Assembly (NCBI GenBank): GCA_964404765.1
Contig: CAYOLL010000010.1
Location: 159-64,158, forward strand
Direction: 5' to 3'
From: an uncultured Gemmatimonadota bacterium
GTDB taxonomy: Bacteria; 4572-55
Length of the DNA: 64,000 nt
Position numbers and translations under genes: made by a program. The notes beneath the pieces are model-generated. The model had not been told where the DNA came from and ran no database searches. It worked only from the letters and a program-made list of their open reading frames with translations. Of this stretch, positions 7,466 to 57,807 are shown in pieces (the stretch's first letter is position 1; every line of letters starts with the position of its first letter).

Positions 7466-7473
7466 AACAAGAT

Positions 7474-7554
7474 AACCTTGCGAAGGTTCGCGCCCGAGAG
7501 TTCAGCGAACCTTGAAAATATTGACTCCGCAGCAAGTTTAACCTTCGCAAGGTT
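7474..7554. repeat. REP-like element, AACCTTGCGAAGGTT family (81 bp)
   Basis: Terminal hairpins AACCTTGCGAAGGTT / AACCTTCGCAAGGTT; related copies at 25264-25344, 25387-25467 and inside the MITE at 24525-24637. Confidence 0.8.
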
Positions 7555-7589
7555 TTCTACATCCATTGCAAATTGTCGAGGCTTAATGT

Positions 7590-23685: not shown

Positions 23686-24524
23686 AAAAGGACGTAATTC
23701 TGTTGGTGGATGACGAAGTCGCCTATCTGCATAGCATGGCGGAAGCTTTTGAGGCGGCCAATCTGCCCTACAAAATTCATAAGACGATCAAGCCGTTTAA
23801 GGCGGTAGAAATTGCTCGCGCCTTGCAGCCGGATTTGATTATTACCGATTGGGATATGCCCAAAATGACCGGTATCCAACTGATTCTGGCCTTAAAGGAT
23901 TACGAGGAAACCCGCGATATTCCGATCATCATGTGCACCGGCATTCGCATCGAATCTACTGACCTGGCCGAAGCGCTGCGCGCCGGGGCGGTGGATTTTA
24001 TCCGCAAGCCCATTGATACGGTGGAGCTGCTGGCCCGAACGCGCATGATGCTGCATCTGGGTCAAAGTACTCGCCAAATAAAGCAGCAGAATCAGCAATT
24101 GGCCCGCCATATCGAAATTCAGCAAAAGCGGCTTTTGGAAATTGCCGAAACCGTTGCCGACAAAAACAAAATGATCGCCGAACTGCAAGCGCGCCTGCCG
24201 GAAACGCCCGCCGAAGAGTTAGCGCTTAAAACCATCACCGAGCTGCGCGCGCTTTTGGATAAAGAAAAGGATTGGGCCACCTTTGAAGCCCACTTTGACA
24301 TCAATTATCCCCAGTTTTTAATGCGCCTAATGGCAGCCTTCCCCCAGTTATCCAAACAAGAATTGCGTATCTGTATGCTGATCAAGGTCGGTATGAGTTC
24401 GACTCAAATAGCGAACCTGCTCTTTTTAGCCAAACGCAGCATTGATTCCCACCGCCACAATATCCGCAAAAAAGTCGGCCTCGATGTGGAGCAGGAATTG
24501 TCTCTGTTTTTGGAGACGATTTAA
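23676..24524 (+). CDS. Response regulator, REC + LuxR-type HTH
   Basis: LLVDD, IITDWDMP (phospho-Asp), FIRKP; C-terminal LSKQELRIC...IDSHRHNIRKK. Confidence 0.92.
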   Translation: MPIKKDVILLVDDEVAYLHSMAEAFEAANLPYKIHKTIKPFKAVEIARALQPDLIITDWDMPKMTGIQLILALKDYEETRDIPIIMCTGIRIESTDLAEALRAGAVDFIRKPIDTVELLARTRMMLHLGQSTRQIKQQNQQLARHIEIQQKRLLEIAETVADKNKMIAELQARLPETPAEELALKTITELRALLDKEKDWATFEAHFDINYPQFLMRLMAAFPQLSKQELRICMLIKVGMSSTQIANLLFLAKRSIDSHRHNIRKKVGLDVEQELSLFLETI

Positions 24525-24863: not shown

Positions 24864-25240
24864 AAAAGCGAAGCATGATTGCATAACCTATTTTATAACA
24901 ACACGTTGACGGCGTACATTCAAATCTTAGTAACATTGGGCTTTAGCCATTTTTTCGACCTGGTAAAAAATGAAAGATTATGCCCATTGCCAGTATAAAT
25001 TTATCGAAAAAATTCCGTACCAAATAAATTTCTTTCCGTACTGCGTATTTCCTATTTTCCCCTAAATTGTCCCATGTCGCCAAAGTTGTCTGTTTACGGT
25101 TGGATTGACTGACCGGCTGAAAGGGTCGGCGACGCCCCAAACAGACGGGCCGGGCAGCCGGATTCTTCCGGGCGAAACGGCAGCATCATCAACGGATTCC
25201 GTCACTTACGGGAGGCGGAATCCGTCCATCTTGCCTTCAA

Positions 25241-25480
25241 TTTTATTCATTCATTTTAAGAATAACCTTGCGAAGGTTCACGCTGGGGAGTTCGGTGATC
25301 CATGAAAGTATTGACTCCGCAACAAGTTTAACCTTCGCAAGGTTACTTGCATCAGCATTCCATTTTATTCATTCATTTTTAAGAATAACCTTGCGCAGGT
25401 TCACGCTGGGGAGTTCGGTGAACCTTGAAAGTCTTGACTCCGCAACAAGTTTAATCTTCGCAAGGTTACCTGCATCCATT
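25241..25480. repeat. Tandem duplication (about 123-bp period) of an AACCTTGCGAAGGTT REP unit
   Basis: Units at 25264-25344 and 25387-25467, each preceded by TTTTATTCATTCATTTT(T)AAGAAT. Confidence 0.85.
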
Positions 25481-25496: not shown

Positions 25497-27224
25497 ATGA
25501 AACGATTCACCTTATCCATCACGGTTCTGTTTACCCTGCTGTTGACGACCCAATTGCTGTGGGCCCAATCGGCCAAGATCAGCTTCCAGGGCGTGCTGCG
25601 CGACAATGTCGGCCGCTCCGTGGCCGACGGCACGTACGCGCTGACCTTCAAGTTCTACACCGCCGCTACCGGCGGGACGCAAGTCGGCTCCAACATCGCC
25701 AAGAACGTGACCGTCGAAAACGGCGTCTATTCGGTCATCTTAGACAGCACGGATTTGACCGGCATTCCGTTCAACGCCGATTATTTTGTGGCCGTGGTCT
25801 ATAACGGCGTGGAGTTCCCGACCCGCGGCGATCTGACCGCATCGCCCTATGCCATGTCGCTGCTTGGCACCAGCAACATTTTTCCCGGTAGTGGCAGTGT
25901 GGGCATCGGTATCACCAACCCGACTTTTGACCTGTGTATTGGTGACAATGACACGGGTATTGATCAGCTCAGCGACGGCGTTTTGGCTATCAAGACCAAT
26001 AATACCCAGCGGATCCGCATCAACTCCAACGGCAATGTGGCCATCGGCGCAAACACCACGCCGGCCATTGATCTGGCTATCGGCGATGACAACTCCGGTT
26101 TGAATTTTACCTCCAACGACAGTCTGGGCATTTATACCAACGGCGTGGAGCGGATGCGCTTTGACAGCAGCGGTAAGGTTGGTATTGGCACAAATGCCCC
26201 ATCCACTCGGCTGCACTTTAAAGGCACGACAGCCACCGACGCCGTATTCTTTCTGGAGCCGGGTGATTGGAACGGCGCCGGCGATTATGCCGAAATCCGC
26301 TTTGGCGATACCTCGCATTACATTCGCGCCGAGCATAGCACCGGCATGACTTTTCACGACACGGATCGGTTTTATTTTAGCGGCTCCCGTGTGGGCATCG
26401 GCACCAACGATCCCCAGGCGATGCTTGATGTGCGGGGTACCAACGTCAATTGGAATCATGGTGCAAATGCCGACCAGTATTATTACGACGGTCAATCCAA
26501 CGATAATAACGCGAGTACAAATGTGGTAGCTTATTTTGATAACTGGATTATGATCAAAAACGGTCTGATTGCCGCTCAATCCCCAACCCTATCCGATGCT
26601 AGGGCCAAGGTGATTATCGGGCAAAGCCATTCGGATGCCGATTTGAAAAAACTGCAGCAAATTAAGGTCACGGATTTTCGCTGGATTGATAAATCCCTTT
26701 GCGGCGACAAGGTTCAAAAGAAGGTCATTGCTCAAGAGTTGAAAGAAGTCTATCCCGAAGCGATTACGTATGTCGAGAAGGCCATTCCGAATGTATATGA
26801 AAATGCCGCCGATTTTCAGTATAACGCGGACAACCGGCTGCTGACGATCACGACAACCAAGCGGCACGGGTTTGTTGCCGGGGACTTTGTTGACATCTAT
26901 GTTGACGCCGGCGATTTGAGCAAGACCGAAGTTAAAGAAATCATCTCCGAAAACACCTTTGCCGTCTCGTGCGAACACAAGCCAAAAGGCGTCTTCGTCT
27001 ATGGCAAATGGGTCAATGACTTTCACATCGTTGATTACGACGCCATTGCCATGCTCAACGTCAGCGCCACGCAGGAGCTGGCCCGCGAGAATGAAGCGCT
27101 CAAGGCCAAAGTCACTGCGCTGGAAGCGAAAGTGGCCGAACTGGAGCAACTGAAGACGCGCTTTGCCCAAGTCGAAGCCATGTTGAAACAGCAACCCGCT
27201 GTTAAACAAACCAGCCTCCACTAA
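25497..27224 (+). CDS. Secreted tail-fibre-like protein 1 with peptidase S74/ICA autochaperone and C-terminal coiled coil
   Basis: Sec-type signal peptide; ISFQGVLRD...PYAMSL N-domain; repeated G(S/N/K)V(G/A)IG units; SDARAK Ser-x4-Lys site (Ser codon 26592); DYDAIAMLNVSATQEL; heptad-rich tail. Confidence 0.85.
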   Translation: MKRFTLSITVLFTLLLTTQLLWAQSAKISFQGVLRDNVGRSVADGTYALTFKFYTAATGGTQVGSNIAKNVTVENGVYSVILDSTDLTGIPFNADYFVAVVYNGVEFPTRGDLTASPYAMSLLGTSNIFPGSGSVGIGITNPTFDLCIGDNDTGIDQLSDGVLAIKTNNTQRIRINSNGNVAIGANTTPAIDLAIGDDNSGLNFTSNDSLGIYTNGVERMRFDSSGKVGIGTNAPSTRLHFKGTTATDAVFFLEPGDWNGAGDYAEIRFGDTSHYIRAEHSTGMTFHDTDRFYFSGSRVGIGTNDPQAMLDVRGTNVNWNHGANADQYYYDGQSNDNNASTNVVAYFDNWIMIKNGLIAAQSPTLSDARAKVIIGQSHSDADLKKLQQIKVTDFRWIDKSLCGDKVQKKVIAQELKEVYPEAITYVEKAIPNVYENAADFQYNADNRLLTITTTKRHGFVAGDFVDIYVDAGDLSKTEVKEIISENTFAVSCEHKPKGVFVYGKWVNDFHIVDYDAIAMLNVSATQELARENEALKAKVTALEAKVAELEQLKTRFAQVEAMLKQQPAVKQTSLH

Positions 27225-27256
27225 GAAATGACATTTCTCCAAGAAATGTCATTTCT
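27224..27256. repeat. 33-bp double palindrome AGAAATGACATTTCT-CCA-AGAAATGTCATTTCT, intergenic copy
   Basis: Identical to 32480-32512 and 53025-53057. Confidence 0.92.
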
Positions 27257-27280
27257 ACCACCCCTAAAACGGAGGTTAGC

Positions 27281-37662: not shown

Positions 37663-37732
37663 AAACCCGTTCATTCGAGGTGACTGTGTGCTCAGCCATA
37701 CAGGTCTGTTTTTTAATTCAGCATGTTTTTTC

Positions 37733-37761
37733 TTGACAGCGATACCGCATTTTTTTATTAT
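37733..37761 (+). promoter_or_regulatory. Near-consensus sigma70 promoter of module 2
   Basis: TTGACA (37733-37738), 17 bp, TATTAT (37756-37761). Confidence 0.7.
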
Positions 37762-37767
37762 TAAAAA

Positions 37768-37879
37768 ATGGTGCGCCCGGAAACCGATGTGGCGGCCCAA
37801 TTTCTAAATTTCTCTATTTGGCGACTCTTGCACAAGAGTTGCGCCAATTGAATAGATCGATTGGCGCAACTCTTTTTTT
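37768..37879 (+). promoter_or_regulatory. Candidate attenuator in the module-2 leader (terminator, competing antiterminator, 27-codon uORF)
   Basis: 15-bp perfect stem 37834-37848/37860-37874 plus T tract; alternative pairing 37818-37830 with 37833-37847; uORF 37768-37851. Confidence 0.6.
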
Positions 37880-37965
37880 ATTCCTATAAAAAGCCTTCGC
37901 TGGCAAAAATTTCATCGCTTATTCATGCTGCATTTTATCACCTCGATCCGGAAAGGAATCCAAAA

Positions 37966-39642
37966 ATGAAACGATTGTCCCTGTTACTCGCAATTCTGGC
38001 TTTACTCATCCCCGCTGCGCCGTCATTGGCAGTGGCGCCCCATGCCCAGCTTAACTTTCAGGGCGTGCTGCGCGACGATGATAATAAGGCGGTAACCAAC
38101 GGAACGTACAGTCTCACCTTTAAGCTGTACATTGACGCCATCGGAACGCCGACGACCCCGGCCTGGCAAGAAACTCAGTCCGCCGTGGTCGAAGACGGCG
38201 TGTTTAGCGTCAACCTGGGTTCGGTGACGCCTTTTACCGTCGGCTTTGATCAGCAGTATTGGGTCGGCATTACTCTGGCCGGCGAGAGCGAGATGACCCC
38301 GCGGATTAAACTGACCACCGCACCCTACGCCATGTCCTTAGTCGGCACGAGCAATCTGTTCCCGTCGGCAGGCAATGTGGGCGTCGGCACGGTTAGTCCG
38401 ACCTTTGATTTGTGTATTGGTGATACCGATACCGGTTTGGATCAGATCACCGACGGCATCCTGGCGGTCAAAACCAATGGCGTCGAAAGAATGCGGATTA
38501 ATGCGAGCGGCAATGTGGGCATCGGCACGACCGCCCCGACTGTGCCATTGGAAGTAGTCGGCAACGTCAAAGTGGACGGCACGACCTTTAATGTGGACGC
38601 AGCCAACAACCGCGTCGGTATCGGCACGGCCGCCCCGACGGTCGCATTCGATGTGGTGGGCTCGGCAAAATTTGACACCACGACGTTTTTTGTGGACGCG
38701 ACGAATAACCGGGTCGGCATCGGCACGACCGCCCCACTCGCGCCGCTGCATGTAGTAAAAAGCGGCTATGTAAGTGGAAACCAAAGCGGAAATATAGCAG
38801 GGGCGGGGAATATATACTTGGGGGCTAACGGCGGTATAGCGAGTATAAACGGACCTAGTGCGACTACCGGAGATAATACGACGATCGTCGGCAGCGCTAT
38901 TGCCGCTATTTTTGACGGTAACACAATCTGTAAGGATTTCATGTGGCTCGGAGATCAAGTTGTTTCGGCCTCAGACCGTCGCGCCAAGCATATTTTCAAT
39001 CAAAGCGATGGCCAGGCGGATTTAAAGACGCTGCGCCAACTGAAGATTACGAATTATGAGTGGATTGATCAAGCGCTGGATAACCATCGCCCCCAAAAGA
39101 AACTCATCGCCCAGGAGTTAGAAGAGGTCTATCCGCAGGCGGTGACCATCGCCCCCATACCGATGGCGATCCCCAACGTCTATCAACCGGCGGCGGCTTT
39201 TGCTTACGATGCGACCGCCCAAAAGCTGACCGTGACCACGAGCAAGCCCCACGACTTTAAGGCCGGCGATAAGATTGATCTCTACACCGACCGGACCGAT
39301 CTCAAGGACATTGCCGTCGAAGCCATTCTGTCCGACCGGCAGTTCACGGTCGCCTGCGCGCAGGAGCCGGCAAAACTCTTTGTCTATGGCAAATACGTAA
39401 CCGACTATCACGGCGTGGATTATGACGCCGTGGCCATGCTCAATGTCAGCGCCACGCAGGAATTGGCTAAGCAAGTGGAAACGCTGCAAACGGCCAATGC
39501 CGCCTTGCAAACAACCAACGCCGCGCTGCAAGCCCAACTCCGGACGGTGATCGGGCAAATGACCGCGCTGCAAGCCCAGGTCAATAAGCTATCGCCAGTC
39601 GAAGTGAAGACCACCAGCGCCGACAAGGCCGACGCCCGGTAA
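37966..39642 (+). CDS. Secreted tail-fibre-like protein 2 with S74/ICA autochaperone
   Basis: Start moved to AAGGA-N8-ATG at 37966 (MKRLSLL signal peptide); LNFQGVLRD N-domain; (N/R)VGIGT repeats; SDRRAK (Ser codon 38971); DYDAVAMLNVSATQEL; coiled-coil tail. Confidence 0.85.
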   Translation: MKRLSLLLAILALLIPAAPSLAVAPHAQLNFQGVLRDDDNKAVTNGTYSLTFKLYIDAIGTPTTPAWQETQSAVVEDGVFSVNLGSVTPFTVGFDQQYWVGITLAGESEMTPRIKLTTAPYAMSLVGTSNLFPSAGNVGVGTVSPTFDLCIGDTDTGLDQITDGILAVKTNGVERMRINASGNVGIGTTAPTVPLEVVGNVKVDGTTFNVDAANNRVGIGTAAPTVAFDVVGSAKFDTTTFFVDATNNRVGIGTTAPLAPLHVVKSGYVSGNQSGNIAGAGNIYLGANGGIASINGPSATTGDNTTIVGSAIAAIFDGNTICKDFMWLGDQVVSASDRRAKHIFNQSDGQADLKTLRQLKITNYEWIDQALDNHRPQKKLIAQELEEVYPQAVTIAPIPMAIPNVYQPAAAFAYDATAQKLTVTTSKPHDFKAGDKIDLYTDRTDLKDIAVEAILSDRQFTVACAQEPAKLFVYGKYVTDYHGVDYDAVAMLNVSATQELAKQVETLQTANAALQTTNAALQAQLRTVIGQMTALQAQVNKLSPVEVKTTSADKADAR

Positions 39643-39798
39643 GTCCGACTTGAATCGCGAAAAGCTTTACCGCAGAGTAACGCAAAGGTTGGCGCAGAGT
39701 TACGCCAAGGAAACTCAGCGAAACTCTGCGATAAACTTTGCGCGACTCTGCGGTAAAAAACAGCCTTTACAGCGCATATCTCACACCGAGGTGATCCA

Positions 39799-42700
39799 AT
39801 GACAAATAGCTACAATTTAGACAATGACGATCGAAATCGGGCCGCCAAAACGCCCCCTTTTCGGCTGTTGCTGTTAATTTTTTCGCTCCTCCTGCTCGTT
39901 TTGCCGGAATTGGGTCGGGTGGAGGCCGCCGGTATCTCGCAGGGTTTATTTACCTACGGCGCGACCATGCCCAAAACAAAGTCGCAAAGCACGGAAGGGC
40001 ATCGCATCATCGGCACCTTCGGGCAAACGCTGGACGGCGAGAGTCAGGCCGTCTCCCAGACGGTTGCCGGCGATAAACTGCACTCTATCTTTTTCGGCTT
40101 ATGGGGCTTTTACAAACTGCCGCCGCTGAGTCCCTTTGTGACCGCCAGCGACGGCGACCATGCCGATCGGATTGTCATCACCTGGAAGTTTGACGTCCTG
40201 AGTTCGCCGCCGACGCAGGGCTATAAAGTCTATCGCAATAACACGTTGCTGATCGGCTTGCCGGCCGGGGAAAATTTCTTTAACGATGTCAATGTCTATC
40301 CCGGCCAGGTCTATAACTACGGCGTTACCGGCATCAGCCTGACCGGCGAGGGCGGGGTAGGCAGCGATCCCGGCTTTGTCAACCCCAACGGCACGATCAC
40401 CGGCCATATCCAGACCAGTCAGCAGCGCCCGGTCATCGGGGCCGATGTGGGCATCACGCCCAACCTCGGCCAGGCCCTGGTCTTTGACGGGGCGGATGAC
40501 TATGCCGTATTGAGCAAAACGGTTGCGTTAAACGGTTCCTCGTTCACGGTCGAGTTCTGGGCCAAACGGGCCGCCGCCGGTACCGCCGATAATGTCATCG
40601 GTTTGGGCGATGTCGCCACTACCCGTCAAGCCTTGACGATCGGCTTTCAGAGCAATAATAAATTTGTGTTTAGCTTTTTGGGCGACTCGTTGGTGACGAC
40701 GGCGGCCTATACCGAGACCGATTGGCATCATTGGGCAGTCACCTACAATAAAACGACCAAAGCCCGCGCCATCTACCGCGACGGCCGGCCGGTGGCGACC
40801 AATACCGCCGGGAATCACTTTGCCGGTTCGGGCGATCTGTGGCTGGGCAAGGCCCGCGGCGGCGGCTACTTCGGCGGCAGCATTGACGATGTGCGCATCT
40901 GGAGCAAGACTCGCAGCGAGGCGGAACTCACCTTAGATATGAACCGCGCCAAGCAAGGCAACGAAGACAGCTTGACCGCCTATTGGAAGTTAGACGAAGG
41001 CAACAGCAGCTTCGTCTTTGACCTGACCGCCCATAATCACGACGGCAAGGTCTATGACGGCGGCAGCTTAAGCGCCGTCTGGAGCGCCGATATCGCCCCG
41101 GTGCGCAACACCGGCTTTACTAACACCGACGGCAACTACATCATCAACGGCATCTACTACGGCACGGGCACGACCTTTACCGTCACGCCCAAAATGGATG
41201 TGCCGGTTGACACGACGCTTTTTAGCCATGAATTTTCGCCCGGCTCCCGGATCGTCACGCTGAACACCAGCAATACCGCCACCGACGGCGTGGACTTTAC
41301 CGACATCTCGCTGATTCCGGTCAGTGGCTTTGTCCAATACGCCAATACGCTCTGCTTTCCCGATAGTGTGGAGATTCTGGTTAACGGCGAGTCGCAAATC
41401 CCCAAAGTCTATACCAACACACAGGGCGCATTCACCGTAGAGCTGAATCCGGGCGGCGATTATCGCCTGACGCCCGTCTATAAGGATCATTCGTTCGCGC
41501 CGGTTTTTCAGGATGTGCTGAGTTTGGTCTCGCCGCAGGCCGGGCTGGCCTTTGTTGATACCAAAGTGCGGACGCTGACCGTGCGGGTCTATGGCGGCCC
41601 GACATCGTGTATGTCCTCGATCCGCCCGACCTCCGGGACGATGAGCGTAACCTTTGCCAGCACGGACGGCTGCTATACCCGGACGGAAAACATCACCTCC
41701 GGCAACAATCTAACCCTGACGAATCTGCCGCCCTTGAATTACGCCCTGACCCTGAACCATCCGGCGGCATTATCGGTGGACGGCGTGACCGTTTCGCTCA
41801 AGGATACGACCGGTATCACCCGCGACCTCGTCTATCGTAAATCCATGACGGTGAATGTTACCGGCCTGCCGACGCCGGATCCCGCCTGCGCGGCCGGTTA
41901 TACCCTGCCATTGGACGGTGGCACGACCCTCAATAACCTGTCAATCTTGACCCAATTGAATTCATACAGCGCCAATGTTGATGTGTATGAGAGTTACACC
42001 GAATTTTCCGGCGGCGTCACCTGCGCCATCGATACCGGTTATGTGACCATTTATAATGCAATTGGCGACAGCGTTCAACCGGCGGTCCGACCGCTGAGAA
42101 AGGTGAATGCCAACACAAGCCGTCTGGTTACGCCTTACACCTTCAAAGCGGGTCGGCCCAACTTTACCTCCGGCGGGCAATATCCCTACGCCAAATCGTT
42201 GGAAGTAGGCGTGCGCGAGTTGCTCCCCAATCTCGACCCGGAGACGGCCGAGGATACGCCCTTTTTGGACGGGCGCGAAGGCTCCGGCATCACCCGCGCC
42301 TACGTGTTGGGTATCCGCAAGCGCGATGGCGGCTTTACCACGCTGCTGCAAAATCCGATCCTGCCGCTCTACATCCTGCGCGATCCGCCCGGCGACGCCA
42401 GCTTTGCCACGATGTCAAACGAGACCCAATTTTCAACCCGTTATAAAGTTTCTTTTTCTAACGGATTTGAAGCCGGGTTGGATTTGAATTTTGGCGGCGA
42501 CACCAAAGTGACAACCTGTGCCGGTATCGGCGTTGCGGTATGCACCATGACGTTGGATACCCAGTTCTCGCAGACGATTCACCTGATCGACCTTAAAGTT
42601 GAGCATACCACCTTGAAAGAAATGCAGATTACGTCCACTTTTTCCGAGAGCTTTTCCACGCTGGCGGAAGAATACCGGGTGGGCGAGGACATGGATTTGT

Positions 42701-45700
42701 ATGTGGGTCTGGGTTCGAATATTCGCATCGCTCAGGCCGATGAACTGAAGCTGTCGGGCTGCGCCTTGCAGATCGGCACAGCCATTGTCGCCGATTCGCT
42801 GGGTATCGAGTCCACATATCTCTATACCGATCATCACATCCGCAACGTTCTGCTGCCCGAACTGACGGCGCTGCTCGTCGCCTCTAGGGATTCGGTAAGG
42901 GCGGGCCAGACCCAATTTGCAGCAGATACACTACGCTATTTCAGATCTATCCGGAACTGGACAGCTATTGTGGATACCAATGCGGCGCTCAAAGCCATGG
43001 CGGTTGAAGATCCCAACCGGCTGACGCAATCGCTCTCCTTTGACAGTAACTTCGGCGGCTACACCATTACCAATACCCGGAATGAGACCCACTCCCAAAC
43101 GTACGAGCATATGCTTTACGATGAGAATGGCGTCGAATTTGATCTTCGTATCAAGCTTTTTGGGGTCGTCCTGCCGGGCCCGGGTCATATTAAAGCGCTG
43201 TATACTCATAGTGAAACGGTCAGCCAGAACCTGAGTACGGGAGCCCTCCCGGGCCCGTTTCCAAATGGAAACTCCGGCGGCTACGACTCCACCTGGACGC
43301 GCACCACCAGCGTCACCTTAGCCGATAACGACCCGGATGACTATTTTTGGATCCAGATTTACGATGACGGCGTCTATGGCAATGTCTATAAACTCGTCGG
43401 CGGGGCCACGACCTGTCCGTGGGAGCCGGGTACGCTGCCACGCCAGGGTACCCAGGTGGAGATGATCGGCTCCACCTCCGGCGGCTACAACGAGATCAAC
43501 ATCCCGCCCGATCAAGCGGCGATCTATAAGCTGATTTTAGTAAATACCAGTCAGACCTTTGAAGATTGGTATTACGATGTGTCAATTTCGCAGGATGTGA
43601 ACCCAGAGGGCGCGATCCAAAAGATTAACGGCTACGATCCGGCGGCGATTGTCTCCGTCTTAGTGCCGGGTCAATTTGGCAACAACACCCTGGAAATGAT
43701 GCTGACCGTCGAACGCGGCCCCATCGCCTACGATTATGAGGATTTAGAAGCGGGCTTAGAGTCCACTTGTGAGGTCGATATCGCGGAAATTCAGCTCGGT
43801 GAAACGGTGCAGTGCGGCCCCGGCGGCGGCCCCGATGAACCGTGCGCGCATTGGTTTCAATATTTGACCCAATACGATGTTCACTTCCTTAAGCCGTGCA
43901 GCGACGTGCGCATTACCGCGCCCAACGATAACATCACGATGACCGCCGCCAGCGATAGCCTGAAGCTGACCCTGGCCGGATATGACCGGAACAATACGGA
44001 TTTTAAAGAAATCCAATTGCAATACAGGCCCGCGCCGCCCGGCCCCAGCCGCGCTGCAATGGGCAATGGACAATGGGCCATGGGCAATTCGCAATTAAGC
44101 TCATCTCGTTCTCAGGTTGCACTTGGGAACGCAGATGCTAAAACGGAAATTGCTAATTCTCAATTGACTTCTCCGAATGAAGCTGCTGTTGAAGCGCGGC
44201 CTGCGTCGGCGAAACAACCCATGATGGGCGTCAGACGAGCCAATGACCGGATCGAGTGGATTCCAATTGCGCCGTACGAAGAGACATACGCGCAAGTGAT
44301 GCGCGAAAACGAGCCGCCTTCGACCCAAAGCGACTGGATTACCTTTGACACCATTAGCCGGAGCGACATCCCCGCGTCGCCGGGCTACCTGATTCATCCT
44401 TGGTACATCAAGGACCTGGCCGATGGCAAATATGAAGTGCGGGCGGTGGCCGCCTGCAACAATCTGGACAACCTGAAAGGCTATTCCCGGACGCTGCACT
44501 TTACGCAGGAGCGCAAACGTCCGGCGGTGATCGCCACCGAGCCGGGCGACCAGGTTTTGCAGTTGGGCGATGCCATCTCCGTTACCTTCGACGAGGCTCT
44601 GGATTGCAGCCGCATTATTGAGGCCAACAGCCTGTTTTTGAACAACATCGGCTTGTACAATACGGAGAATAGCAGCCTGGTGAATATTGCCATTTCTTGT
44701 TTGGATAATCAAATTTTTGCGCAGGTGGAAAATCCGGAGGCCGTCTACCCGTTCCTGGAAAATAAAACCGTGCGGCTCAAGCTGGCCCAGATCAAAGACC
44801 TGGCCGGAAACATTATGGACGCCAATCCGAGTTCTGCGCCGGTGGATACGGTTTACAACTTTGAGTTTTATGTGAATCGCAATCCGATTGCCTGGGAAGG
44901 CGGCGATGTCACTGCCGTCAAGTATGATGACGAAGTCGCCACCATCACTCGGAAATTGATCAACAACGGCGCGTCACCGATGGACTTTAGCTTTATGGAT
45001 TTGACCCCCAATCCGGGCCGCGACACCTTGCGTGTGCCGAGTTGGATGACGGTAACGCCCATGAGCGGGACGGTCAACCCGGGCACGGCCAAAATCATCT
45101 CCCTGACCTTTGACGCCGATTTGATCGGCGGTAATTATGCGCATGAACTCAGGGCCAGAACCACGATGGGCGACGAGCCGATGCTGGTTGATCTGCAAAA
45201 TCTGTGTCATCCGCCGGACTGGCCGCTGGCTCTGTACGAGTATGAGTTCAACATGACCATTGCCGGAAAAATCGTATCCACGGAGTATCCGGTCTCGGAA
45301 TTCCTGACCATTGCGGCCTTTGTGGGTTCGGAAGTTCGCGGCAAGGCGGTTATTGAATTTGACAGTGTGGTCAACGACACCTTGTTCTACATGGTCGTCG
45401 GCAGCGACTCCATTTCCGGCGAGCCGGTTACGCTGCGGGTCTGGGACGGCCTGGTGTGCGTCGAAGTCGGCAGTTCGATTGGCGCGTTTACCTTTGCCGC
45501 CAATAGCGAGATCGGCAGCCCAAGCAATCCGCACGTCTTTGACATCACCGGTCAGTCGGCGGCGGAAGTCCGCTTTAACCCCGGCTGGAACTGGTTTTCG
45601 ATCAACATGGCGATGACCGACCTGGGCATCAACACCGTGCTGGAAGGTCTTTCGCCGGCCTCAGGCGACTTGATTAAGAGTCAAAGCCAATTTAGCCAAT

Positions 45701-46785
45701 ACGTGGCCGGGCTGGGTTGGGTCGGTTCTCTGAGCACGCTGAACAACAAGGCCATGTACATGCTCAAACTGACCGCAGCGGACAACATGAATATTTTCGG
45801 CACGCCGATCAAGCTGGCCCTGAACACCATTCCGATTCAACCTGGTTGGAATTGGATCAGCTACCAGCCCGTGCGGGCGCAGCCGATCAATGTGTCGTTA
45901 GCGTCCTTAACCACCGTTGCCAATGGTGATTTGATCAAAAATCAGTATGCTTTTGCCCAGTATGTAGCCGGTCTGGGCTGGGTGGGCAACCTGGATTATT
46001 TGGAACCGAGCATGGGCTACATGCTCAAAGCCGCCAACCCGGGAACATTGAGCTTTCCGTGGCCGCCTCCGCTGGCATTGATGGCGGCTGCGACGGTTTC
46101 GACCGCCGCTGAAATTGGCAATTCTCAATTGGCCATTGCCAATTGGCAATTCGATCCGGCCCAATTTGAGCACAACATGACCGTCACCGGGGAAATCTCG
46201 CAATCTTCAATCCCCAATCCGCAATGGGCGGTTGGCGCTTTTGTCGGCGACGAATGCCGCGGCACGGCCGAGCCGGTCTACATCGAATCACTGCAAAAAA
46301 CGCTTTTCTTTTTGCTGATTCATAGTAATCAGGCCTCCGGCGAGACGGTGGAATTTCGTCTGCTCGATCAAGGCGACGCAAGCGAATATGCTGCCGATCA
46401 AATTGTCAAGTTTGAAGCCAACGCTTCGCTTGGCGACATCGAATCGTCCTTCGTCTGGACGGCAAGGCCTTTGGATGCGGAAAGCAAGCCCGATGCTCTG
46501 CCGATGCACTTTGCGCTGGCCCAAAACCGGCCCAATCCTTTTGCCGCTTTTACGACCATTCAATACGCCCTGCCAAAGGATGCGAATGTAGAACTCTCTA
46601 TCTACAACGTGGCCGGCCAAAAGGTGCGGACGCTGGTGAATGAGCGGCAAGCGGCGGGTTATCGCAGCGTGAATTGGGACGGCAAGAATGATACGGGCGA
46701 GGCGGTCAACGCGGGCGTGTATTTTTATCGCCTGAAGACGGACGCGGGGTTTGAGGCGACGCGGAAGTTGTTGCTTGTTAAATAA
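39799..46785 (+). CDS. Giant secreted protein 2 (2328 aa), paralog of giant 1 with one LamG domain and FlgD-Ig/T9SS-type CTD
   Basis: Shared GFVNPNGT, RDPPGD, DND..D.FW...Y.DG..G..(F/Y)KLV.G...CPWE.GT, VNRNP.AW.GGDVT and CTD motifs. Confidence 0.85.
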   Translation: MTNSYNLDNDDRNRAAKTPPFRLLLLIFSLLLLVLPELGRVEAAGISQGLFTYGATMPKTKSQSTEGHRIIGTFGQTLDGESQAVSQTVAGDKLHSIFFGLWGFYKLPPLSPFVTASDGDHADRIVITWKFDVLSSPPTQGYKVYRNNTLLIGLPAGENFFNDVNVYPGQVYNYGVTGISLTGEGGVGSDPGFVNPNGTITGHIQTSQQRPVIGADVGITPNLGQALVFDGADDYAVLSKTVALNGSSFTVEFWAKRAAAGTADNVIGLGDVATTRQALTIGFQSNNKFVFSFLGDSLVTTAAYTETDWHHWAVTYNKTTKARAIYRDGRPVATNTAGNHFAGSGDLWLGKARGGGYFGGSIDDVRIWSKTRSEAELTLDMNRAKQGNEDSLTAYWKLDEGNSSFVFDLTAHNHDGKVYDGGSLSAVWSADIAPVRNTGFTNTDGNYIINGIYYGTGTTFTVTPKMDVPVDTTLFSHEFSPGSRIVTLNTSNTATDGVDFTDISLIPVSGFVQYANTLCFPDSVEILVNGESQIPKVYTNTQGAFTVELNPGGDYRLTPVYKDHSFAPVFQDVLSLVSPQAGLAFVDTKVRTLTVRVYGGPTSCMSSIRPTSGTMSVTFASTDGCYTRTENITSGNNLTLTNLPPLNYALTLNHPAALSVDGVTVSLKDTTGITRDLVYRKSMTVNVTGLPTPDPACAAGYTLPLDGGTTLNNLSILTQLNSYSANVDVYESYTEFSGGVTCAIDTGYVTIYNAIGDSVQPAVRPLRKVNANTSRLVTPYTFKAGRPNFTSGGQYPYAKSLEVGVRELLPNLDPETAEDTPFLDGREGSGITRAYVLGIRKRDGGFTTLLQNPILPLYILRDPPGDASFATMSNETQFSTRYKVSFSNGFEAGLDLNFGGDTKVTTCAGIGVAVCTMTLDTQFSQTIHLIDLKVEHTTLKEMQITSTFSESFSTLAEEYRVGEDMDLYVGLGSNIRIAQADELKLSGCALQIGTAIVADSLGIESTYLYTDHHIRNVLLPELTALLVASRDSVRAGQTQFAADTLRYFRSIRNWTAIVDTNAALKAMAVEDPNRLTQSLSFDSNFGGYTITNTRNETHSQTYEHMLYDENGVEFDLRIKLFGVVLPGPGHIKALYTHSETVSQNLSTGALPGPFPNGNSGGYDSTWTRTTSVTLADNDPDDYFWIQIYDDGVYGNVYKLVGGATTCPWEPGTLPRQGTQVEMIGSTSGGYNEINIPPDQAAIYKLILVNTSQTFEDWYYDVSISQDVNPEGAIQKINGYDPAAIVSVLVPGQFGNNTLEMMLTVERGPIAYDYEDLEAGLESTCEVDIAEIQLGETVQCGPGGGPDEPCAHWFQYLTQYDVHFLKPCSDVRITAPNDNITMTAASDSLKLTLAGYDRNNTDFKEIQLQYRPAPPGPSRAAMGNGQWAMGNSQLSSSRSQVALGNADAKTEIANSQLTSPNEAAVEARPASAKQPMMGVRRANDRIEWIPIAPYEETYAQVMRENEPPSTQSDWITFDTISRSDIPASPGYLIHPWYIKDLADGKYEVRAVAACNNLDNLKGYSRTLHFTQERKRPAVIATEPGDQVLQLGDAISVTFDEALDCSRIIEANSLFLNNIGLYNTENSSLVNIAISCLDNQIFAQVENPEAVYPFLENKTVRLKLAQIKDLAGNIMDANPSSAPVDTVYNFEFYVNRNPIAWEGGDVTAVKYDDEVATITRKLINNGASPMDFSFMDLTPNPGRDTLRVPSWMTVTPMSGTVNPGTAKIISLTFDADLIGGNYAHELRARTTMGDEPMLVDLQNLCHPPDWPLALYEYEFNMTIAGKIVSTEYPVSEFLTIAAFVGSEVRGKAVIEFDSVVNDTLFYMVVGSDSISGEPVTLRVWDGLVCVEVGSSIGAFTFAANSEIGSPSNPHVFDITGQSAAEVRFNPGWNWFSINMAMTDLGINTVLEGLSPASGDLIKSQSQFSQYVAGLGWVGSLSTLNNKAMYMLKLTAADNMNIFGTPIKLALNTIPIQPGWNWISYQPVRAQPINVSLASLTTVANGDLIKNQYAFAQYVAGLGWVGNLDYLEPSMGYMLKAANPGTLSFPWPPPLALMAAATVSTAAEIGNSQLAIANWQFDPAQFEHNMTVTGEISQSSIPNPQWAVGAFVGDECRGTAEPVYIESLQKTLFFLLIHSNQASGETVEFRLLDQGDASEYAADQIVKFEANASLGDIESSFVWTARPLDAESKPDALPMHFALAQNRPNPFAAFTTIQYALPKDANVELSIYNVAGQKVRTLVNERQAAGYRSVNWDGKNDTGEAVNAGVYFYRLKTDAGFEATRKLLLVK

Positions 46786-47079: not shown

Positions 47080-50000
47080 ATGACTCAGCTAAAACCCGGC
47101 ATGATTATCGAAGGACCATTCTGGCCCGAATTCGTCGAGATTCGACAAATCGAAGAATTGGGTGACTATTATCAGATTTCCGGCTTGACGAAGAACACCC
47201 ACCAGCATGTTGATCAACTCCTTTCGCAAAGCGACATGGCCAAAATCAGAGTGATTGGGGTGGATCGGCTTTTTGCCGAAGATGCCTGGAAAGTTTTTTT
47301 GGCGTTAGAGACCATCCGTTTCCGTTATGCTTCGTTGTATGATCCGTTGTTGGCCATGAATACCTCCAAAATTGACCCTTTACCTCACCAAATTGAAGCG
47401 GTTTACGGCTATGTGCTGCAATTACCTCGAATTCGCTTTTTGATTGCCGACGATCCGGGCGCCGGTAAAACAATTATGGCCGGATTGATCATCAAAGAGC
47501 TTAAAATTCGACACATGGCCAAGCGCATTTTGATTGTTGCGCCGGGGCATTTAAAAGACCAGTGGCAGCGCGAAATGCGCGAGCGTTTCTCCGAAAATTT
47601 TGTCGTGGTGGATCGTGGCTTTGTGGATGGATTTTATGGCGAAAATGTTTGGGCCAGAGAAAATCAATTAGTCACTTCCATAGATTTTGCTAAACGGGAT
47701 GAAGTGTTGCCGGCCATTTCGGCGGCCCGCTTTGATTTGATCATTGTGGATGAAGCGCATAAGATGAGCGCTTATCGTTACGGCGATAAAATTGACCGCA
47801 CCAGTCGCTACAAGTTGGGTGAAGTTTTATCCAAAAGCACCGAGCACCTATTGTTTTTGACGGCCACGCCGCATCGGGGTGATCAGGAGAATTTCCGCTT
47901 GTTTTTGGATCTGCTCGTGCCGGGCTTCTTTGCCACCAAACAGCAATTGGAAAAATCCGCTCAAGATAAGGATAACCCGCTTTTTATTCGCCGGGTCAAG
48001 GAAGATTTGAAAGATTTTGAGGGTAAACCCTTGTTTTTGCCGCGTCATGTCACCACCAAAGCCTTCAATCTGCGTAGCGAATCCCCAACTGAGCAAGACT
48101 TGTATAATGATCTTTCCAAATATGTGGTAGAGCAATACAACAAAGCCTTAACGAGGGACAAAAAGCGCAATGTCGCCTTTGCTCTGGTCATTCTGCAGCG
48201 CCGCTTGGCTTCTAGCACATACGCGGTTTTAAAGTCGTTGGAACGACGCAAAAAACGTCTTGAGGATATGTTAGAAGGCGCATCACAATTTGAAAAGCCC
48301 GGATTTGATGCCGATGTGGACGCAACTGATGACATGAACGAAGAAGAGCGTTGGAAAGAGGAAGAACTTTGGGAAACATTGAGTGTGGCCGAAAATCGGG
48401 AAGAATTAAAGAAAGAAGTAACCATTATTGAAAGTTTGATCCAAAAAGCCAAAAGTATCATCCACAACGAAGAAGAAATCAAACTTAAGCATTTTAGAGA
48501 TGCGTTAAAATCACTGCATGAACGGGTGACCGATCCGAAAGAACGGAAAATTCTTGTTTTTACAGAATCAAAGGATACGCTGGAATATCTGGAGAAAAAA
48601 GTCAACGAATGGGGTTATCGAATCAACACCATTCACGGCAGCATGAAATTGGATGAGCGGGTCAAGGCTGAGAGCGTTTTCAAGAATGAAACGGATGTGA
48701 TGATTGCCACGGAAGCCGCCGGCGAAGGCATTAACCTGCAATTCTGCCATTTGATGATCAATTACGATCTGCCCTGGAATCCAAACCGACTCGAACAGCG
48801 GATGGGTCGGATTCATCGCTATGGTCAAACGAAAGAAGTACAGATTGTCAATTTGGTCGCGGAAGATACCCGCGAAGGCGCGGTCATGTGCCGGCTGTTT
48901 CAAAAGCTGGATGAAATCCGGCAGGCGATGGGCAACGACAAAGTTTTTGATATGATTGGCAACATACTCTACGAAAAGAATTTGTCCCAATTGTTGGTTG
49001 AAGCAGCCGCTAATGCCCGTAGCATGGATGAAATTTTAAAAGACATGAATATTGTCGTCGACGAAGAGTATATTAGCAAAATAAAAATCAGTCTGGATGA
49101 AAGCTTAGCTACACACTTTATCGACTATACCCGCATCGCTGACATGGCCCAAAAAGCCCGCGAATATCGTTTGATTCCTGAGTACACTGAAGCATTTTTC
49201 ATAAAAGCCTTTTCACGGGCTGGCGGCAAATTCAGGTTATTGAAAAACGGCTTTATTGTCATTGACAGCATTCCCTTAGTCATTCGTCAGATTACCGGTA
49301 ATTTCAATTTTATCAAAACTTACGGCAAGTTGGACAAATACAACCGCATTACCTTCGACAAGGAGGTGGCTTTTAAAAATCCCGATGCCGAATTTGTCAC
49401 CTTTGGTCATCCGCTTTTTGAAGCAGTCATGCGCTGGATTGAAACCACTTTTGCCGAAACCGTTTTGAACGGCGCAACTTTTATTGATCCCGATGGCCGC
49501 ATGGATGGCTATTTGCTGTATTACGAGGCAGAAATCAAAGACGGCGCTAACACTATCGCCGGAAAAAGACTGTTTACGCTCTATGCCACTGCCACAGAAG
49601 TTATTCCTGTTTTTCCGGCCATTATTTGGGATTTGCAAGAAGCCACATCTCCCCAAATTGAAACCCTTGATCTGGAAGCGCTGAAAAAGCAAACTTTCGC
49701 TAAAGTCATTCCCATCCTGGAAGCCTATAAAGGCGAACTCTTAAAAGAACGGCAACGGCAGGCCGGGATAAAAGAAAAATACGGTATTACGTCCCTGAAT
49801 CATCTGATTTACGAGCTGGAAGAAGACTTGATCAAATTGAACGAGCGCAAGCTTCAGGGCGAAGCCATTGACTTGCCCATCCGCAATAAGGAAGAGCAAA
49901 AAGCCCGCTATTTGTACGCCCTGGAAAGCTTGAAAAAGCAGATTGAGCAGGAAAAAAATCTGGCTATGACCCGCCCGCGTTTTGTGGGCGCGCTGCGCGT

Positions 50001-50409
50001 TGTGCCCAATACAACGACGGATGCCGAAATGACCGAAAGCGTAGAAATCGAACACATCGGCATGGCCGAGGCCATGCGCTACGAGCGGGAGCAAGGCCGC
50101 GAACCCGAGGATGTTTCGGCGGAAAATTTGGGATTTGATATTCGTTCCAGAGAGAAAAACGGCGTCACCCGCTATATCGAAGTCAAAGCCCGCGCTGCTA
50201 CCGGGGCCGTCATACTGACGCAAAACGAGTGGTTCAAGGCCAAACGGTTTCAGCGGGATTATTATTTGTACGCCGTCCTAAACGCAGCCACCACACCGCA
50301 ACTGTATCTCGTCCAAAATCCGGCGCACAGCCTCAAACCCCAGGAGATTGCCGAATCCGTGCGTTATCTGATACCGTATCAAGAAATCCTCAACAACCGG
50401 CTGGCATAA
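47080..50409 (+). CDS. SNF2-family helicase with C-terminal DUF3883-like (PD-(D/E)xK) nuclease domain
   Basis: LPHQIEAV, ADDPGAGKT, IVDEAHK, LTATPH, ATEAAGEGINLQ, WNPNRLEQRMGRIHRYGQ; C-terminal GFDIRS...YIEVKAR. Confidence 0.92.
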   Translation: MTQLKPGMIIEGPFWPEFVEIRQIEELGDYYQISGLTKNTHQHVDQLLSQSDMAKIRVIGVDRLFAEDAWKVFLALETIRFRYASLYDPLLAMNTSKIDPLPHQIEAVYGYVLQLPRIRFLIADDPGAGKTIMAGLIIKELKIRHMAKRILIVAPGHLKDQWQREMRERFSENFVVVDRGFVDGFYGENVWARENQLVTSIDFAKRDEVLPAISAARFDLIIVDEAHKMSAYRYGDKIDRTSRYKLGEVLSKSTEHLLFLTATPHRGDQENFRLFLDLLVPGFFATKQQLEKSAQDKDNPLFIRRVKEDLKDFEGKPLFLPRHVTTKAFNLRSESPTEQDLYNDLSKYVVEQYNKALTRDKKRNVAFALVILQRRLASSTYAVLKSLERRKKRLEDMLEGASQFEKPGFDADVDATDDMNEEERWKEEELWETLSVAENREELKKEVTIIESLIQKAKSIIHNEEEIKLKHFRDALKSLHERVTDPKERKILVFTESKDTLEYLEKKVNEWGYRINTIHGSMKLDERVKAESVFKNETDVMIATEAAGEGINLQFCHLMINYDLPWNPNRLEQRMGRIHRYGQTKEVQIVNLVAEDTREGAVMCRLFQKLDEIRQAMGNDKVFDMIGNILYEKNLSQLLVEAAANARSMDEILKDMNIVVDEEYISKIKISLDESLATHFIDYTRIADMAQKAREYRLIPEYTEAFFIKAFSRAGGKFRLLKNGFIVIDSIPLVIRQITGNFNFIKTYGKLDKYNRITFDKEVAFKNPDAEFVTFGHPLFEAVMRWIETTFAETVLNGATFIDPDGRMDGYLLYYEAEIKDGANTIAGKRLFTLYATATEVIPVFPAIIWDLQEATSPQIETLDLEALKKQTFAKVIPILEAYKGELLKERQRQAGIKEKYGITSLNHLIYELEEDLIKLNERKLQGEAIDLPIRNKEEQKARYLYALESLKKQIEQEKNLAMTRPRFVGALRVVPNTTTDAEMTESVEIEHIGMAEAMRYEREQGREPEDVSAENLGFDIRSREKNGVTRYIEVKARAATGAVILTQNEWFKAKRFQRDYYLYAVLNAATTPQLYLVQNPAHSLKPQEIAESVRYLIPYQEILNNRLA

Positions 50410-50419
50410 GGAGAATAAT

Positions 50420-52135: not shown

Positions 52136-52175
52136 GGAGTAGCAAATTTTAATTTGCCCGCTTGCCCGCGCCAAG

Positions 52176-52204
52176 AGATTCCATCTTTTGAAAAGATGGA
52201 GTCT
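52176..52204. repeat. 29-bp hairpin AGATTCCATCTTTT-G-AAAAGATGGAGTCT between ATPase and methylase
   Basis: 14-bp stem with one G-T pair. Confidence 0.6.
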
Positions 52205-52226
52205 GAATTTTCAATAAGGAATTATA

Positions 52227-57706: not shown

Positions 57707-57765
57707 GGCAACGCGGAAGCTGCTGTTGATCAAATAACCCGGAGCGTCATAGAAGTGCCTGACAG

Positions 57766-57807
57766 GCGGTCGTATGAAAGGTAACTTTCGTACAACCGCT
57801 TTTTTTT
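57766..57807 (+). terminator. Terminator homologous to 35165-35206 (displaced module terminator)
   Basis: GCGGTCGTATGAAAG-GTAA-CTTTCGTACAACCGC plus T8. Confidence 0.85.

Follow-up and report, generated by a model that had tools for sequence, protein, structure and literature searches.

A 64,000-nucleotide (nt) stretch of DNA from an uncultured Gemmatimonadota bacterium (contig CAYOLL010000010.1; the whole stretch is called the window here) carries two same-strand (+) gene pairs, at 25497-34981 and 37966-46785. In each pair a gene for a secreted, tail-fibre-like protein (the fibre) is followed by a gene for a very large protein (the giant) that ends in a type IX secretion system (T9SS) C-terminal sorting domain (CTD). 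The coupling of fibre and giant is a strongly conserved operon arrangement that holds in both directions and is near-obligate from the giant side. We propose, with a probability of roughly 0.6, that the two pairs are paralogous operon copies that build a two-part surface appendage, in which the fibre is docked on the T9SS giant. A preliminary description of this DNA had noted the same gene pair twice, and both copies lie where it placed them.

Fibre and giant genes of the window

The fibre genes and the parts of their products are as follows.

25497-27224, + strand: fibre 1, 575 amino acids (aa)
fibre 1, residues ~1-25: Sec-type signal peptide, read from the sequence
fibre 1, residues ~26-128 (25572-25880): N-terminal domain (N-domain) of the mosaic adhesive trimer (MAT) type, with the conserved FQGVLRD...PYAMSL
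fibre 1, residues 129-365: beta-helical stalk with G.VGIGT loops
fibre 1, Ser366 (codon 26592-26594) and Lys371: S74 catalytic residues
fibre 1, residues 366-575: chaperone part, predicted to be cleaved off, ending in a coiled coil
37966-39642, + strand: fibre 2, 558 aa (the program-called open reading frame (ORF) begins at 37861)
fibre 2, residues ~1-24: Sec-type signal peptide
fibre 2, residues ~28-131 (38047-38358): N-domain, with the stalk next
fibre 2, Ser336 (codon 38971-38973): S74 serine, then the C-terminal chaperone part with its coiled coil

Full-length identity between the two fibres is 40%, and they have the FQGVLRD...PYAMSL N-domain and the G.VGIGT..P...L repeats in common. Both match Peptidase_S74 (PF13884), at 36.3 and 36.8 bits against a gathering score of 22, and S366, D367, R369 and K371 are invariant in an alignment of 10 fibre homologues. 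S74 fibres trimerise and then cut off their own chaperone; from family homology, self-cleavage at Ser366 of fibre 1 and Ser336 of fibre 2, as well as trimerisation, would be expected, and this intramolecular chaperone would help to form the tips of the two fibres. No match to the T9SS sorting domains TIGR04183, PF18962 or PF13585 was found in either fibre, the C-terminus being a coiled coil, and judged by sorting domains the fibres are not T9SS cargo. The preliminary description had given the fibre as a signal peptide, an N-domain, GxVGIGT repeats and an S74 site with no CTD, and every one of these features was found; the serine codons of the S-D-x3-K sites that it placed at 26592 and 38971 are both exact (S366 and S336).

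Profile comparisons place the fibre in the MAT superfamily, an already described kind of protein with members in the FCB (Fibrobacterota-Chlorobiota-Bacteroidota) group. The NCBIfam model NF053851 (Bdello_MAT_N) matches 28 of 35 homologous N-domains, with a best E value of 4.4e-8; fibre 2 matches it weakly (E 0.003) and fibre 1 alone gives no match. A profile of 10 full-length fibres finds Bd2133 (8OND) as the best solved structure (E 2.3e-17) and also matches the Bdellovibrio MAT structures 8OML, 8OJN, 8OL4 and 8ON4, and the chaperone part matches MyRF 7DC3 (E 1e-14). The same N-domain is carried with S74, Collar/Gp10_C, Lectin_C, Lcl_C and unassigned tips. In the published account MAT proteins combine a signal peptide and an N-domain that is conserved and beta-rich with a trimeric beta-helix bearing capping loops and with tips of the S74 or non-S74 kind; the N-domain has no PDB homologue and presumably binds a surface element, which was left open there, and Supplementary Table S3 of that study lists FCB-group members from Saprospiraceae, Salinivirga, Kordia and Dokdonia (PMC10769870). 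Because of the NF053851 and Bd2133 matches and these listed members, the fibre cannot be called undescribed, as the whole system had been, tentatively, at first; it falls within the MAT fibres of 2024 (PMC10769870).

Only part of the fibre resembles phage proteins. PHROG tail-fibre matches, with E values down to 5e-25, are limited to the stalk and S74 part and start at around residue 134. The N-domain has no Pfam family and gave no tblastn match against 50,697 phage records. Its AlphaFold2 model is a beta-sandwich with a predicted local distance difference test score (pLDDT) of 82, exceeding 90 for residues 10-90, for which Foldseek returned no significant PDB match (best E 0.01) and, in BFVD, marginal matches to generic beta-sandwiches. 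By these comparisons the N-domain (~105 aa) is not of phage origin, and the phage-type part is the stalk and S74 region. We also considered the N-domain as a T9SS-CTD-like sorting domain and rejected this, since its FlgD_ig matches are isolated (E ~0.04-0.09) and phyla that lack T9SS have the domain as well.

The PHROG matches, together with public annotation of relatives as 'tail fiber domain-containing protein', could be taken to mean that the region is a prophage, tailocin or phage-tail-like remnant and the fibres ordinary tail fibres. However, no capsid, tail tube, sheath, baseplate, terminase or integrase gene was found in the window, where the large ORFs bear out the earlier statement that phage structural genes are lacking, or in the homologous loci looked up. 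Furthermore, the fibres have signal peptides, their N-domain is absent from phage records and their conserved partner is T9SS cargo. We regard this explanation as highly improbable and rejected a prophage or phage-tail-like element on the lack of neighbouring phage structural genes in the window and the homologous loci.

The partner genes have the following features.

27281-34981, + strand: giant 1, 2566 aa
giant 1, residues 1-29: signal peptide
giant 1, residues 40-200 (27398-27880): N-terminal module, called gN here, a motif segment and then an FN3-like domain
27458-27520: GQP...GFW segment of giant 1
giant 1, residues ~200-640: LamG region
giant 1, residues ~700-1950: conserved core with no family assignment
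giant 1, residues 1950-2470: repeated 'GWNW' domains
giant 1, residues 2483-2563 (34727-34969): type A T9SS CTD
39799-46785, + strand: giant 2, 2328 aa (representative P0222)
40021-40104: GQ...GLW segment of giant 2
giant 2, remaining parts: signal peptide, FN3-like domain, one LamG domain, conserved core and GWNW repeats
giant 2, residues 2245-2325 (46531-46773): type A CTD

Identity between the giants is 47% in the C-terminal 1190 aa, against 33% in the N-terminal part. Given these values and the 40% identity of the fibres, the pairs are old paralogues and not a recent duplication. Both giants match Laminin_G_3 (E 1e-43 and 3e-23) and, at 35.7 and 37.5 bits against a cut-off of 23, the TIGR04183 sorting domain; their last 80 residues also match Por_Secre_tail, FlgD_ig and CHU_C of Pfam. 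With a Sec signal peptide and a type A CTD the giants classify as T9SS type A cargo, export being predicted from the CTD. The arrangement first proposed for them, namely a signal peptide, an N-terminal GQ...G(F/L)W motif, LamG domains and a CTD, held up in all its parts.

Seven giants aligned end to end have one shared architecture, which runs from the signal peptide through gN, a CarboxypepD_reg-like domain, one to three lectin-like LamG domains, the core and the GWNW repeats to the type A CTD. The GQ...G(F/L)W motif is conserved in giants of other contigs, gN consisting of a (T/V)(I/V)GQP...G(F/L)(W/Y) segment and an FN3-like domain, and the core of ~1200 aa contains the motifs ILRDPPGD.SYSYL and SSCPWE.GT.PREG. 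Neither gN nor the core had an explanatory match in Pfam (searched in overlapping segments), NCBIfam or a PDB sequence search. An AlphaFold2 model of residues 880-1950 (mean pLDDT 66.5) has confident beta-sandwich arrays and an unresolved middle, and Foldseek matched it only to generic multi-Ig or macroglobulin-like arrays with TM scores of ~0.1. Pfam segments, PDB search and AlphaFold2 with Foldseek revealed no domain of an enzymatic, toxin or pore-forming kind in the giant. We therefore dropped the idea of a delivery apparatus, which the preliminary description had entertained and which a giant with no detectable toxin or enzymatic domain leaves unsupported.

We searched 1.84 billion representative proteins with a gN profile and examined 146 new top matches. 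Motif-bearing gN was present in 44 of the 146 and stood directly after the signal peptide in 40 of these 44; every sufficiently long motif-bearing representative also has the giant core and repeats, and about 25 complete representatives measure 2139-2605 aa. Thus, among the top representative matches, the motif-bearing module appears to be essentially private to this one giant family.

Pairing across genomes and the coupled parts

Pairing was surveyed from both sides. From the fibre side, a scan of one genome per species with the full-length fibre alignment gave 80 loci, which were sorted by hidden Markov models for the fibre N-domain, the whole fibre and five giant segments. The first five fibre-homologue loci each had a giant of ~2280 aa, with LamG domains and a CTD, directly downstream. 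Where the N-domain match was strong, a giant followed directly in 29 of 32 decidable loci, with gaps of 13-366 nt; three loci had no giant and seven more end at a contig edge. The fibres with the same S74 end and a weak or no N-domain match divided differently (37 without a giant, two with one, six at a contig end), and both giant-paired members of this class are fibres cut by the contig start. The paired taxa comprise Saprospiraceae, Lewinellaceae, Aureispira, Cyclobacteriaceae, Ekhidna and other Bacteroidota, Ignavibacteriota and Gemmatimonadaceae. The giant is also present at locus L091, and at L090 (Zhuqueibacterota) two non-S74 fibres with Collar/Gp10_C tips are followed 34 nt further on by a gN gene. 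The neighbourhood survey of N-domain homologues that the preliminary description had suggested hence turned up conserved pairing with a CTD-bearing giant (the above 29 of 32 loci).

For the view from the giant, metagenomes were scanned with the gN alignment. This yielded 80 loci centred on a giant, five of which begin so near the giant that no decision is possible. Automatic classification found a fibre directly upstream in 71 of the 80. Inspection of four apparent exceptions found an intact upstream fibre missed by the ORF rule in three and a truncated fibre in the fourth, so that at least one fibre lies directly upstream in 74-75 of 75 decidable giant loci. The pairing seen from the two sides is far beyond chance, and, as expected for other genomes, it is conserved in both directions. 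Three tandem fibres precede the giant in 12 loci and two in three loci.

Most giant-paired metagenome fibres are short (~290-520 aa) and have non-S74 tips (Lcl_C and several unassigned folds). The S74 domain is therefore incidental to the system, the constants being the N-domain and the giant, and its treatment at the outset as a defining part was overstated. We found no description of the fibre-giant pairing (T9SS with S74 or tail fibre) in the open-access literature; that the two are obligately coupled, and that the coupling maps to two particular modules, appears to be new. Of the candidate undescribed system put forward in the preliminary description, the kind of fibre and the secretion signal were already known; the coupling to the giant is the part that is apparently new.

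A third gene frequently follows the giant (L002 18838-, L004 18778-, L001 18215-, L091 9974- and many other loci). Its product, T9SS cargo of 700-1400 aa with HYR and MopE-like repeats, has the GWNW repeat domain in common with the C-terminal part of the giant (E 1e-13 to 1e-40). This HYR/MopE-like cargo is absent from the window.

Three lines of comparison bear on which parts of the two proteins are coupled. Firstly, it is the N-domain, rather than the S74 end, that pairing tracks: fibres whose tips are of another kind are paired, and S74 fibres that have another N-terminus are not. Secondly, a sister family of T9SS cargo (1600-1790 aa) matches the gN model only from position ~49 onward and so lacks the GQP...GFW segment; at the three loci of such motif-less relatives that were looked up, none had a fibre neighbour. 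Thirdly, pairwise distances over 71 non-redundant loci correlate best between the N-domain and the motif segment (r 0.61), with lower values for the N-domain against the FN3-like part (0.47) and the core (0.43). A partial Mantel test on the same loci gave 0.51 (p 0.001) for N-domain against motif given the core, the reverse partial, N-domain against core given the motif, being 0.17. In a 26-locus set the fibre's own C-domain tracked all giant parts poorly (r 0.33-0.45). The free exchange of tips on a constant N-domain, the motif-less relatives without fibres and the co-variation are thus three lines of comparative evidence that fit the fibre N-domain and the giant motif segment as the coupled parts. 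The preliminary description had named the same two segments as docking parts; their coupling is supported, and a physical docking would be a further step that we propose below.

Some MAT-like fibres have neighbours of another kind. The verrucomicrobial MAT-like S74 fibres have their own conserved, secreted neighbour of ~600 aa in seven of eight loci (L013 5298-7178, L016 5799-7655, L031, L037, L047, L054, L066). It is unrelated to the giant, carries the motifs L.PGWN..YL and HTYHPDHDN, and may be a second lineage-specific fibre partner, which suggests that lineage-specific partners are the rule. Just upstream of a betaproteobacterial fibre with a strong N-domain match lies a gene for a 210-aa secreted protein (L043 6023-6655), which has an S.SYKL.SSVGD...LAPGFW segment and two dockerin-like repeats; this might be an independent case, but the resemblance of its segment to the giant motif is statistically undetectable and we treat it as anecdotal.

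Fibre and giant might instead be separate adhesins that are co-transcribed for the same process, such as attachment or predation, and make no contact, the fibre reaching the surface and being anchored there by another route, the one that MAT fibres take in bacteria lacking T9SS. MAT-like fibres do occur without a giant in Verrucomicrobiota, Betaproteobacteria, Zixibacteria and Bdellovibrio (PMC10769870), and several Saprospiraceae fibres have no adjacent giant. We nevertheless consider this unlikely. The link is near-obligate from the giant side (74-75 of 75 loci) and follows one N-domain subtype and one giant segment. Moreover, co-variation of the N-domain is stronger with the motif segment than with the giant core or the fibre's own C-terminal part, and the verrucomicrobial fibres with a neighbour of their own (7/8 loci) point to lineage-specific partners.

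A proposed two-part appendage

Cargo with a type A CTD crosses the outer membrane via T9SS, and its new C-terminus commonly fixes it to the surface, so that the N-terminus stays free. MAT fibres are found at the cell surface with their N-domain proximal. In the model we propose, the fibre, which has no sorting domain, would bind by its N-domain to gN of the giant, specifically to the GQP...GFW segment before the first FN3-like domain. It would either be carried out together with the giant or be captured on it afterwards. Exchangeable tips would then be shown at the free distal end of the giant, where they could bind prey, particles or surfaces, and two or three fibres encoded before one giant would provide alternative tips on a single platform. 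Trimerisation, T9SS export and anchoring, direct docking and an adhesive role are all steps that we infer from sequence comparison.

A more specific route, in which the CTD-less trimer binds gN in the periplasm, crosses the SprA translocon in complex with the giant and stays on it as an exchangeable tip, is tentative and on balance we doubt it. It is also conceivable that the giant is only an export vehicle or assembly platform, from which the fibre is handed to another anchor or released after T9SS passage. This would account for a fibre with a signal peptide and no CTD and for one giant serving up to three fibres, and the evidence from pairing and co-variation is equally compatible with it. 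However, it leaves unexplained ~2300 aa of LamG, core and repeat domains conserved across phyla. Furthermore, the loci have no conserved gene for a second anchor (the third gene that is often present encodes T9SS cargo itself), and hence we judge the vehicle explanation improbable.

Several points weigh against the docked appendage. We found no precedent for T9SS export of a CTD-less partner, and no core T9SS genes (SprA/Sov, PorK-N, PorU/V) lie within the 64-kb window. Synteny alone argues for a functional link, not for contact; the loci may share an ancestral operon and would then not be independent events, and the co-variation could arise partly from two fast-evolving segments of similar dynamic range. 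In a few giants (L019, L023, L105) additional LamG domains precede gN, which is then internal, and a free N-terminus is thus not required. All NF053851 scores lie below the curated 60-bit cut-off and support homology of the N-domains at the superfamily level, not membership of the Bdellovibrio subfamily. Finally, strong N-domain matches without an adjacent giant occur at L028, L030 and L052 (Saprospiraceae), L043 (Betaproteobacteria) and L092 (Zixibacteria), and MAT fibres are present in phyla that lack T9SS. The giant is hence a partner of these fibres in particular lineages and not a universal MAT anchor.

With the docked appendage still as our preferred model, its parts can be compared with known systems. 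Like the Bdellovibrio MAT proteins (Bd3182 of the S74 type and Bd2133 of the non-S74 type; PMC10769870), the fibres have a signal peptide directly before a conserved beta-rich N-domain, which is probably homologous at the superfamily level, a stalk that by sequence match corresponds to the trimeric beta-helix with V-G-x-G-T..P...L capping loops, and exchangeable tips in S74 and non-S74 subgroups. They differ in length, being 510-850 aa here, with many paired ones elsewhere at ~290-520 aa, against ~1000 aa in Bdellovibrio. Their N-domain is ~105 aa long against ~130 aa and appears to be a distant subtype below the NF053851 cut-off. The operon with a giant T9SS cargo is a further difference, no such partner having been reported for Bdellovibrio (PMC10769870). 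With S74-bearing phage tailspikes and fibres (K1F endosialidase, T5 pb1) and with MyRF, the fibres of the window share the S-D-x3-K site and the beta-helical part before it; unlike the phage fibres, they have the beta-sandwich N-terminus of a secreted bacterial protein in place of a virion-attachment domain, and their genes are chromosomal with no phage genes adjacent.

The giants resemble SprB of Flavobacterium johnsoniae and GhpA of Aureispira in being very large cargo with a Sec signal peptide, beta-sandwich repeats and a T9SS CTD. SprB and GhpA project from the surface of Bacteroidota, including predatory relatives of Saprospiraceae (bioRxiv 10.1101/2024.01.29.577165); among such relatives the fibre-giant module is carried by Aureispira (L036) and Ekhidna (L034). 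GhpA (5898 aa; SprB has 6497 aa) forms a homo-heptamer that is the whole appendage, and PorP and PorE homologues are encoded adjacent to it (bioRxiv 10.1101/2024.01.29.577165). The putative GhpA homologues of the Ekhidna paper are described there as type B CTD proteins. The giants here differ in size (2140-2600 aa), in their type A CTD and in being partnered by a fibre with a gene of its own, and neither PorP nor PorE was found encoded next to them in the window or in the homologous loci looked up. A GhpA-type grappling hook was rejected on the same grounds: the giants of the window have 2328 and 2566 aa, a type A CTD and no adjacent PorP/PorE.

Closest to the giants are the motif-less core relatives, for example a Labilibaculum antarcticum 'thrombospondin type 3 repeat-containing protein' (P0145) with TSP_3 and CarboxypepD_reg domains. 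These share the core (gMid1-3, E 1e-50 to 1e-80), the FN3-like domains and the type A CTD with the giants, and differ in having another N-terminal module, no GQP...GFW segment and mostly no GWNW repeats. At L088 (13542-15270 and 2333-3253) one such relative, P0147, puts the core into another genomic setting, with CsgG/LpoB/DUF5683-like genes and also a sigma-54 two-component pair on its flanks.

Genomic context and wider meaning

Within the window, fibre and giant are separated by 56 nt in pair 1 and 156 nt in pair 2, on the same strand and with no terminator-like site between them in either pair. A hairpin after giant 1 is the predicted end of module 1. On these grounds each pair looks like one transcription unit. 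The elements around the pairs are listed here.

21373-23685, + strand: 7TMR-DISM histidine kinase (Pfam)
23676-24524, + strand: LuxR/GerE response regulator (Pfam)
27225-27257, 32481-32513 and 53026-53058: three copies, with zero mismatches, of the 33-nt perfect palindrome GAAATGACATTTC-TCCAA-GAAATGTCATTTC
35163-35200, + strand: strong terminator-like hairpin after giant 1, 17-bp stem and T-run, with a related copy at 57760-57807
47080-50409: DISARM DrmD-like SNF2 helicase with NOV_C domain
50420-52135: AAA ATPase
52227-55136: anti-phage-associated DUF1156 methylase-like protein
54848-57706: DUF499 protein, overlapping the DUF1156 ORF by ~290 nt as called

The two-component pair upstream of module 1 possibly regulates it. 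Pairs of a kinase and a LuxR regulator also adjoin homologous modules in L001 and L005, and similar sensors stand beside several loci, which suggests regulated expression. None of the palindrome copies would be expected by chance. The first abuts the fibre 1 stop codon within the 56-nt gap and is not followed by a T-run; that it sets the relative expression of fibre 1 and giant 1 is speculation on our part. The copies at 32481 (in giant 1) and 53026 (in the DUF1156 gene) are in frame and encode the same 11-residue peptide, which in giant 1 falls in a poorly conserved linker. By analogy with Rickettsia palindromic elements, the palindrome looks like a small mobile element that tolerates in-frame insertion.

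Further repeats were noted. A 115-nt element is tandemly duplicated with 94% identity directly before the fibre 1 start (25240-25353 and 25362-25476), and a third copy (85-88%) is intergenic at 7472-7567, before a phosphoglucosamine mutase-like gene. The copies may belong to a repeat family or act as a common regulatory element. Upstream of fibre 2 (37534-37655) and in the gap between fibre 2 and giant 2 (39655-39775) stands a 122-nt repeat (85% identity), rich in GCGCAGAGT-type sub-repeats. Before fibre 2 there are also a strong hairpin with a T-run (37834-37874) and an 11/12 match to a sigma-70-like promoter (37733-37761). A 142-nt interspersed repeat (95% identity) pairs 35002-35142 with 913-772 on the - strand, and the giant 1 hairpin is itself part of a repeat (35159-35206 and 57760-57807). 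The genome seems rich in short elements resembling repetitive extragenic palindromes or miniature inverted-repeat transposable elements. The four genes listed from 47080 to 57706 form an anti-phage defence island directly after giant 2, and a GWxTD-domain protein is encoded at 924-2258 on the - strand (TIGR04514, E 4e-31), which along with the FlgD_ig-like type A CTDs points to a member of the FCB group. Rfam and transfer RNA scans of the window returned nothing.

Between the two pairs lies a third fibre, which the preliminary description had called degenerate; it is indeed a pseudogene, broken into two pieces, with a non-S74 tip at its end.

36007-36180, + strand: 5' piece, signal peptide fused directly to PYALSFVGTNNIFPS
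36215-36613, + strand: dgkA, intact diacylglycerol kinase, 132 aa (Pfam DAGK_prokar, E 1.5e-20)
36889-37500, + strand: 3' piece, stalk repeats and then a ~100-aa non-S74 tip

Because the signal peptide of the 5' piece runs straight into PYALSFVGTNNIFPS, the N-domain has been deleted. The 3' piece has a stop codon immediately upstream and no signal peptide; it is 71% identical to fibre 2 residues 178-264 and has PHROG matches in the stalk, and its tip matched no Pfam family. The dgkA gene sits exactly between the halves of the decayed fibre, the break falling between ...NNIFPS and AGNVGVGT... of the ancestral frame. Other loci carry two or three fibres ahead of a single giant, and by analogy the third fibre is most easily understood as the decayed first member of a two-fibre array before giant 2. 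Such arrays, in which one to three fibres with different tips precede a giant, resemble a cassette for host or prey range, much as phages swap their receptor-binding proteins.

The module is common in Saprospiraceae, Lewinellaceae, Aureispira, Ekhidna and Cyclobacteriaceae and is also present in Ignavibacteriota, Gemmatimonadota and Zhuqueibacterota; several of the lineages that bear it are known or suspected predators or algicidal bacteria. Its products are at present annotated only as 'tail fiber domain-containing protein' and 'LamG domain-containing protein'. The pairing is more general than could be seen from this DNA alone, being a widespread operon of one or more MAT-type fibres and a dedicated T9SS giant. 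The giant is thus a concrete candidate for the surface anchor of MAT-type fibres and makes the open question of the MAT anchor testable. If the more specific route, with binding in the periplasm and joint passage through SprA, is true, it would be the first such anchor to be identified, and the appendage would be the first two-protein one assembled by T9SS with cassette-like, swappable tips. The docked model would also mean that T9SS cargo can be the platform for a partner without a sorting signal.

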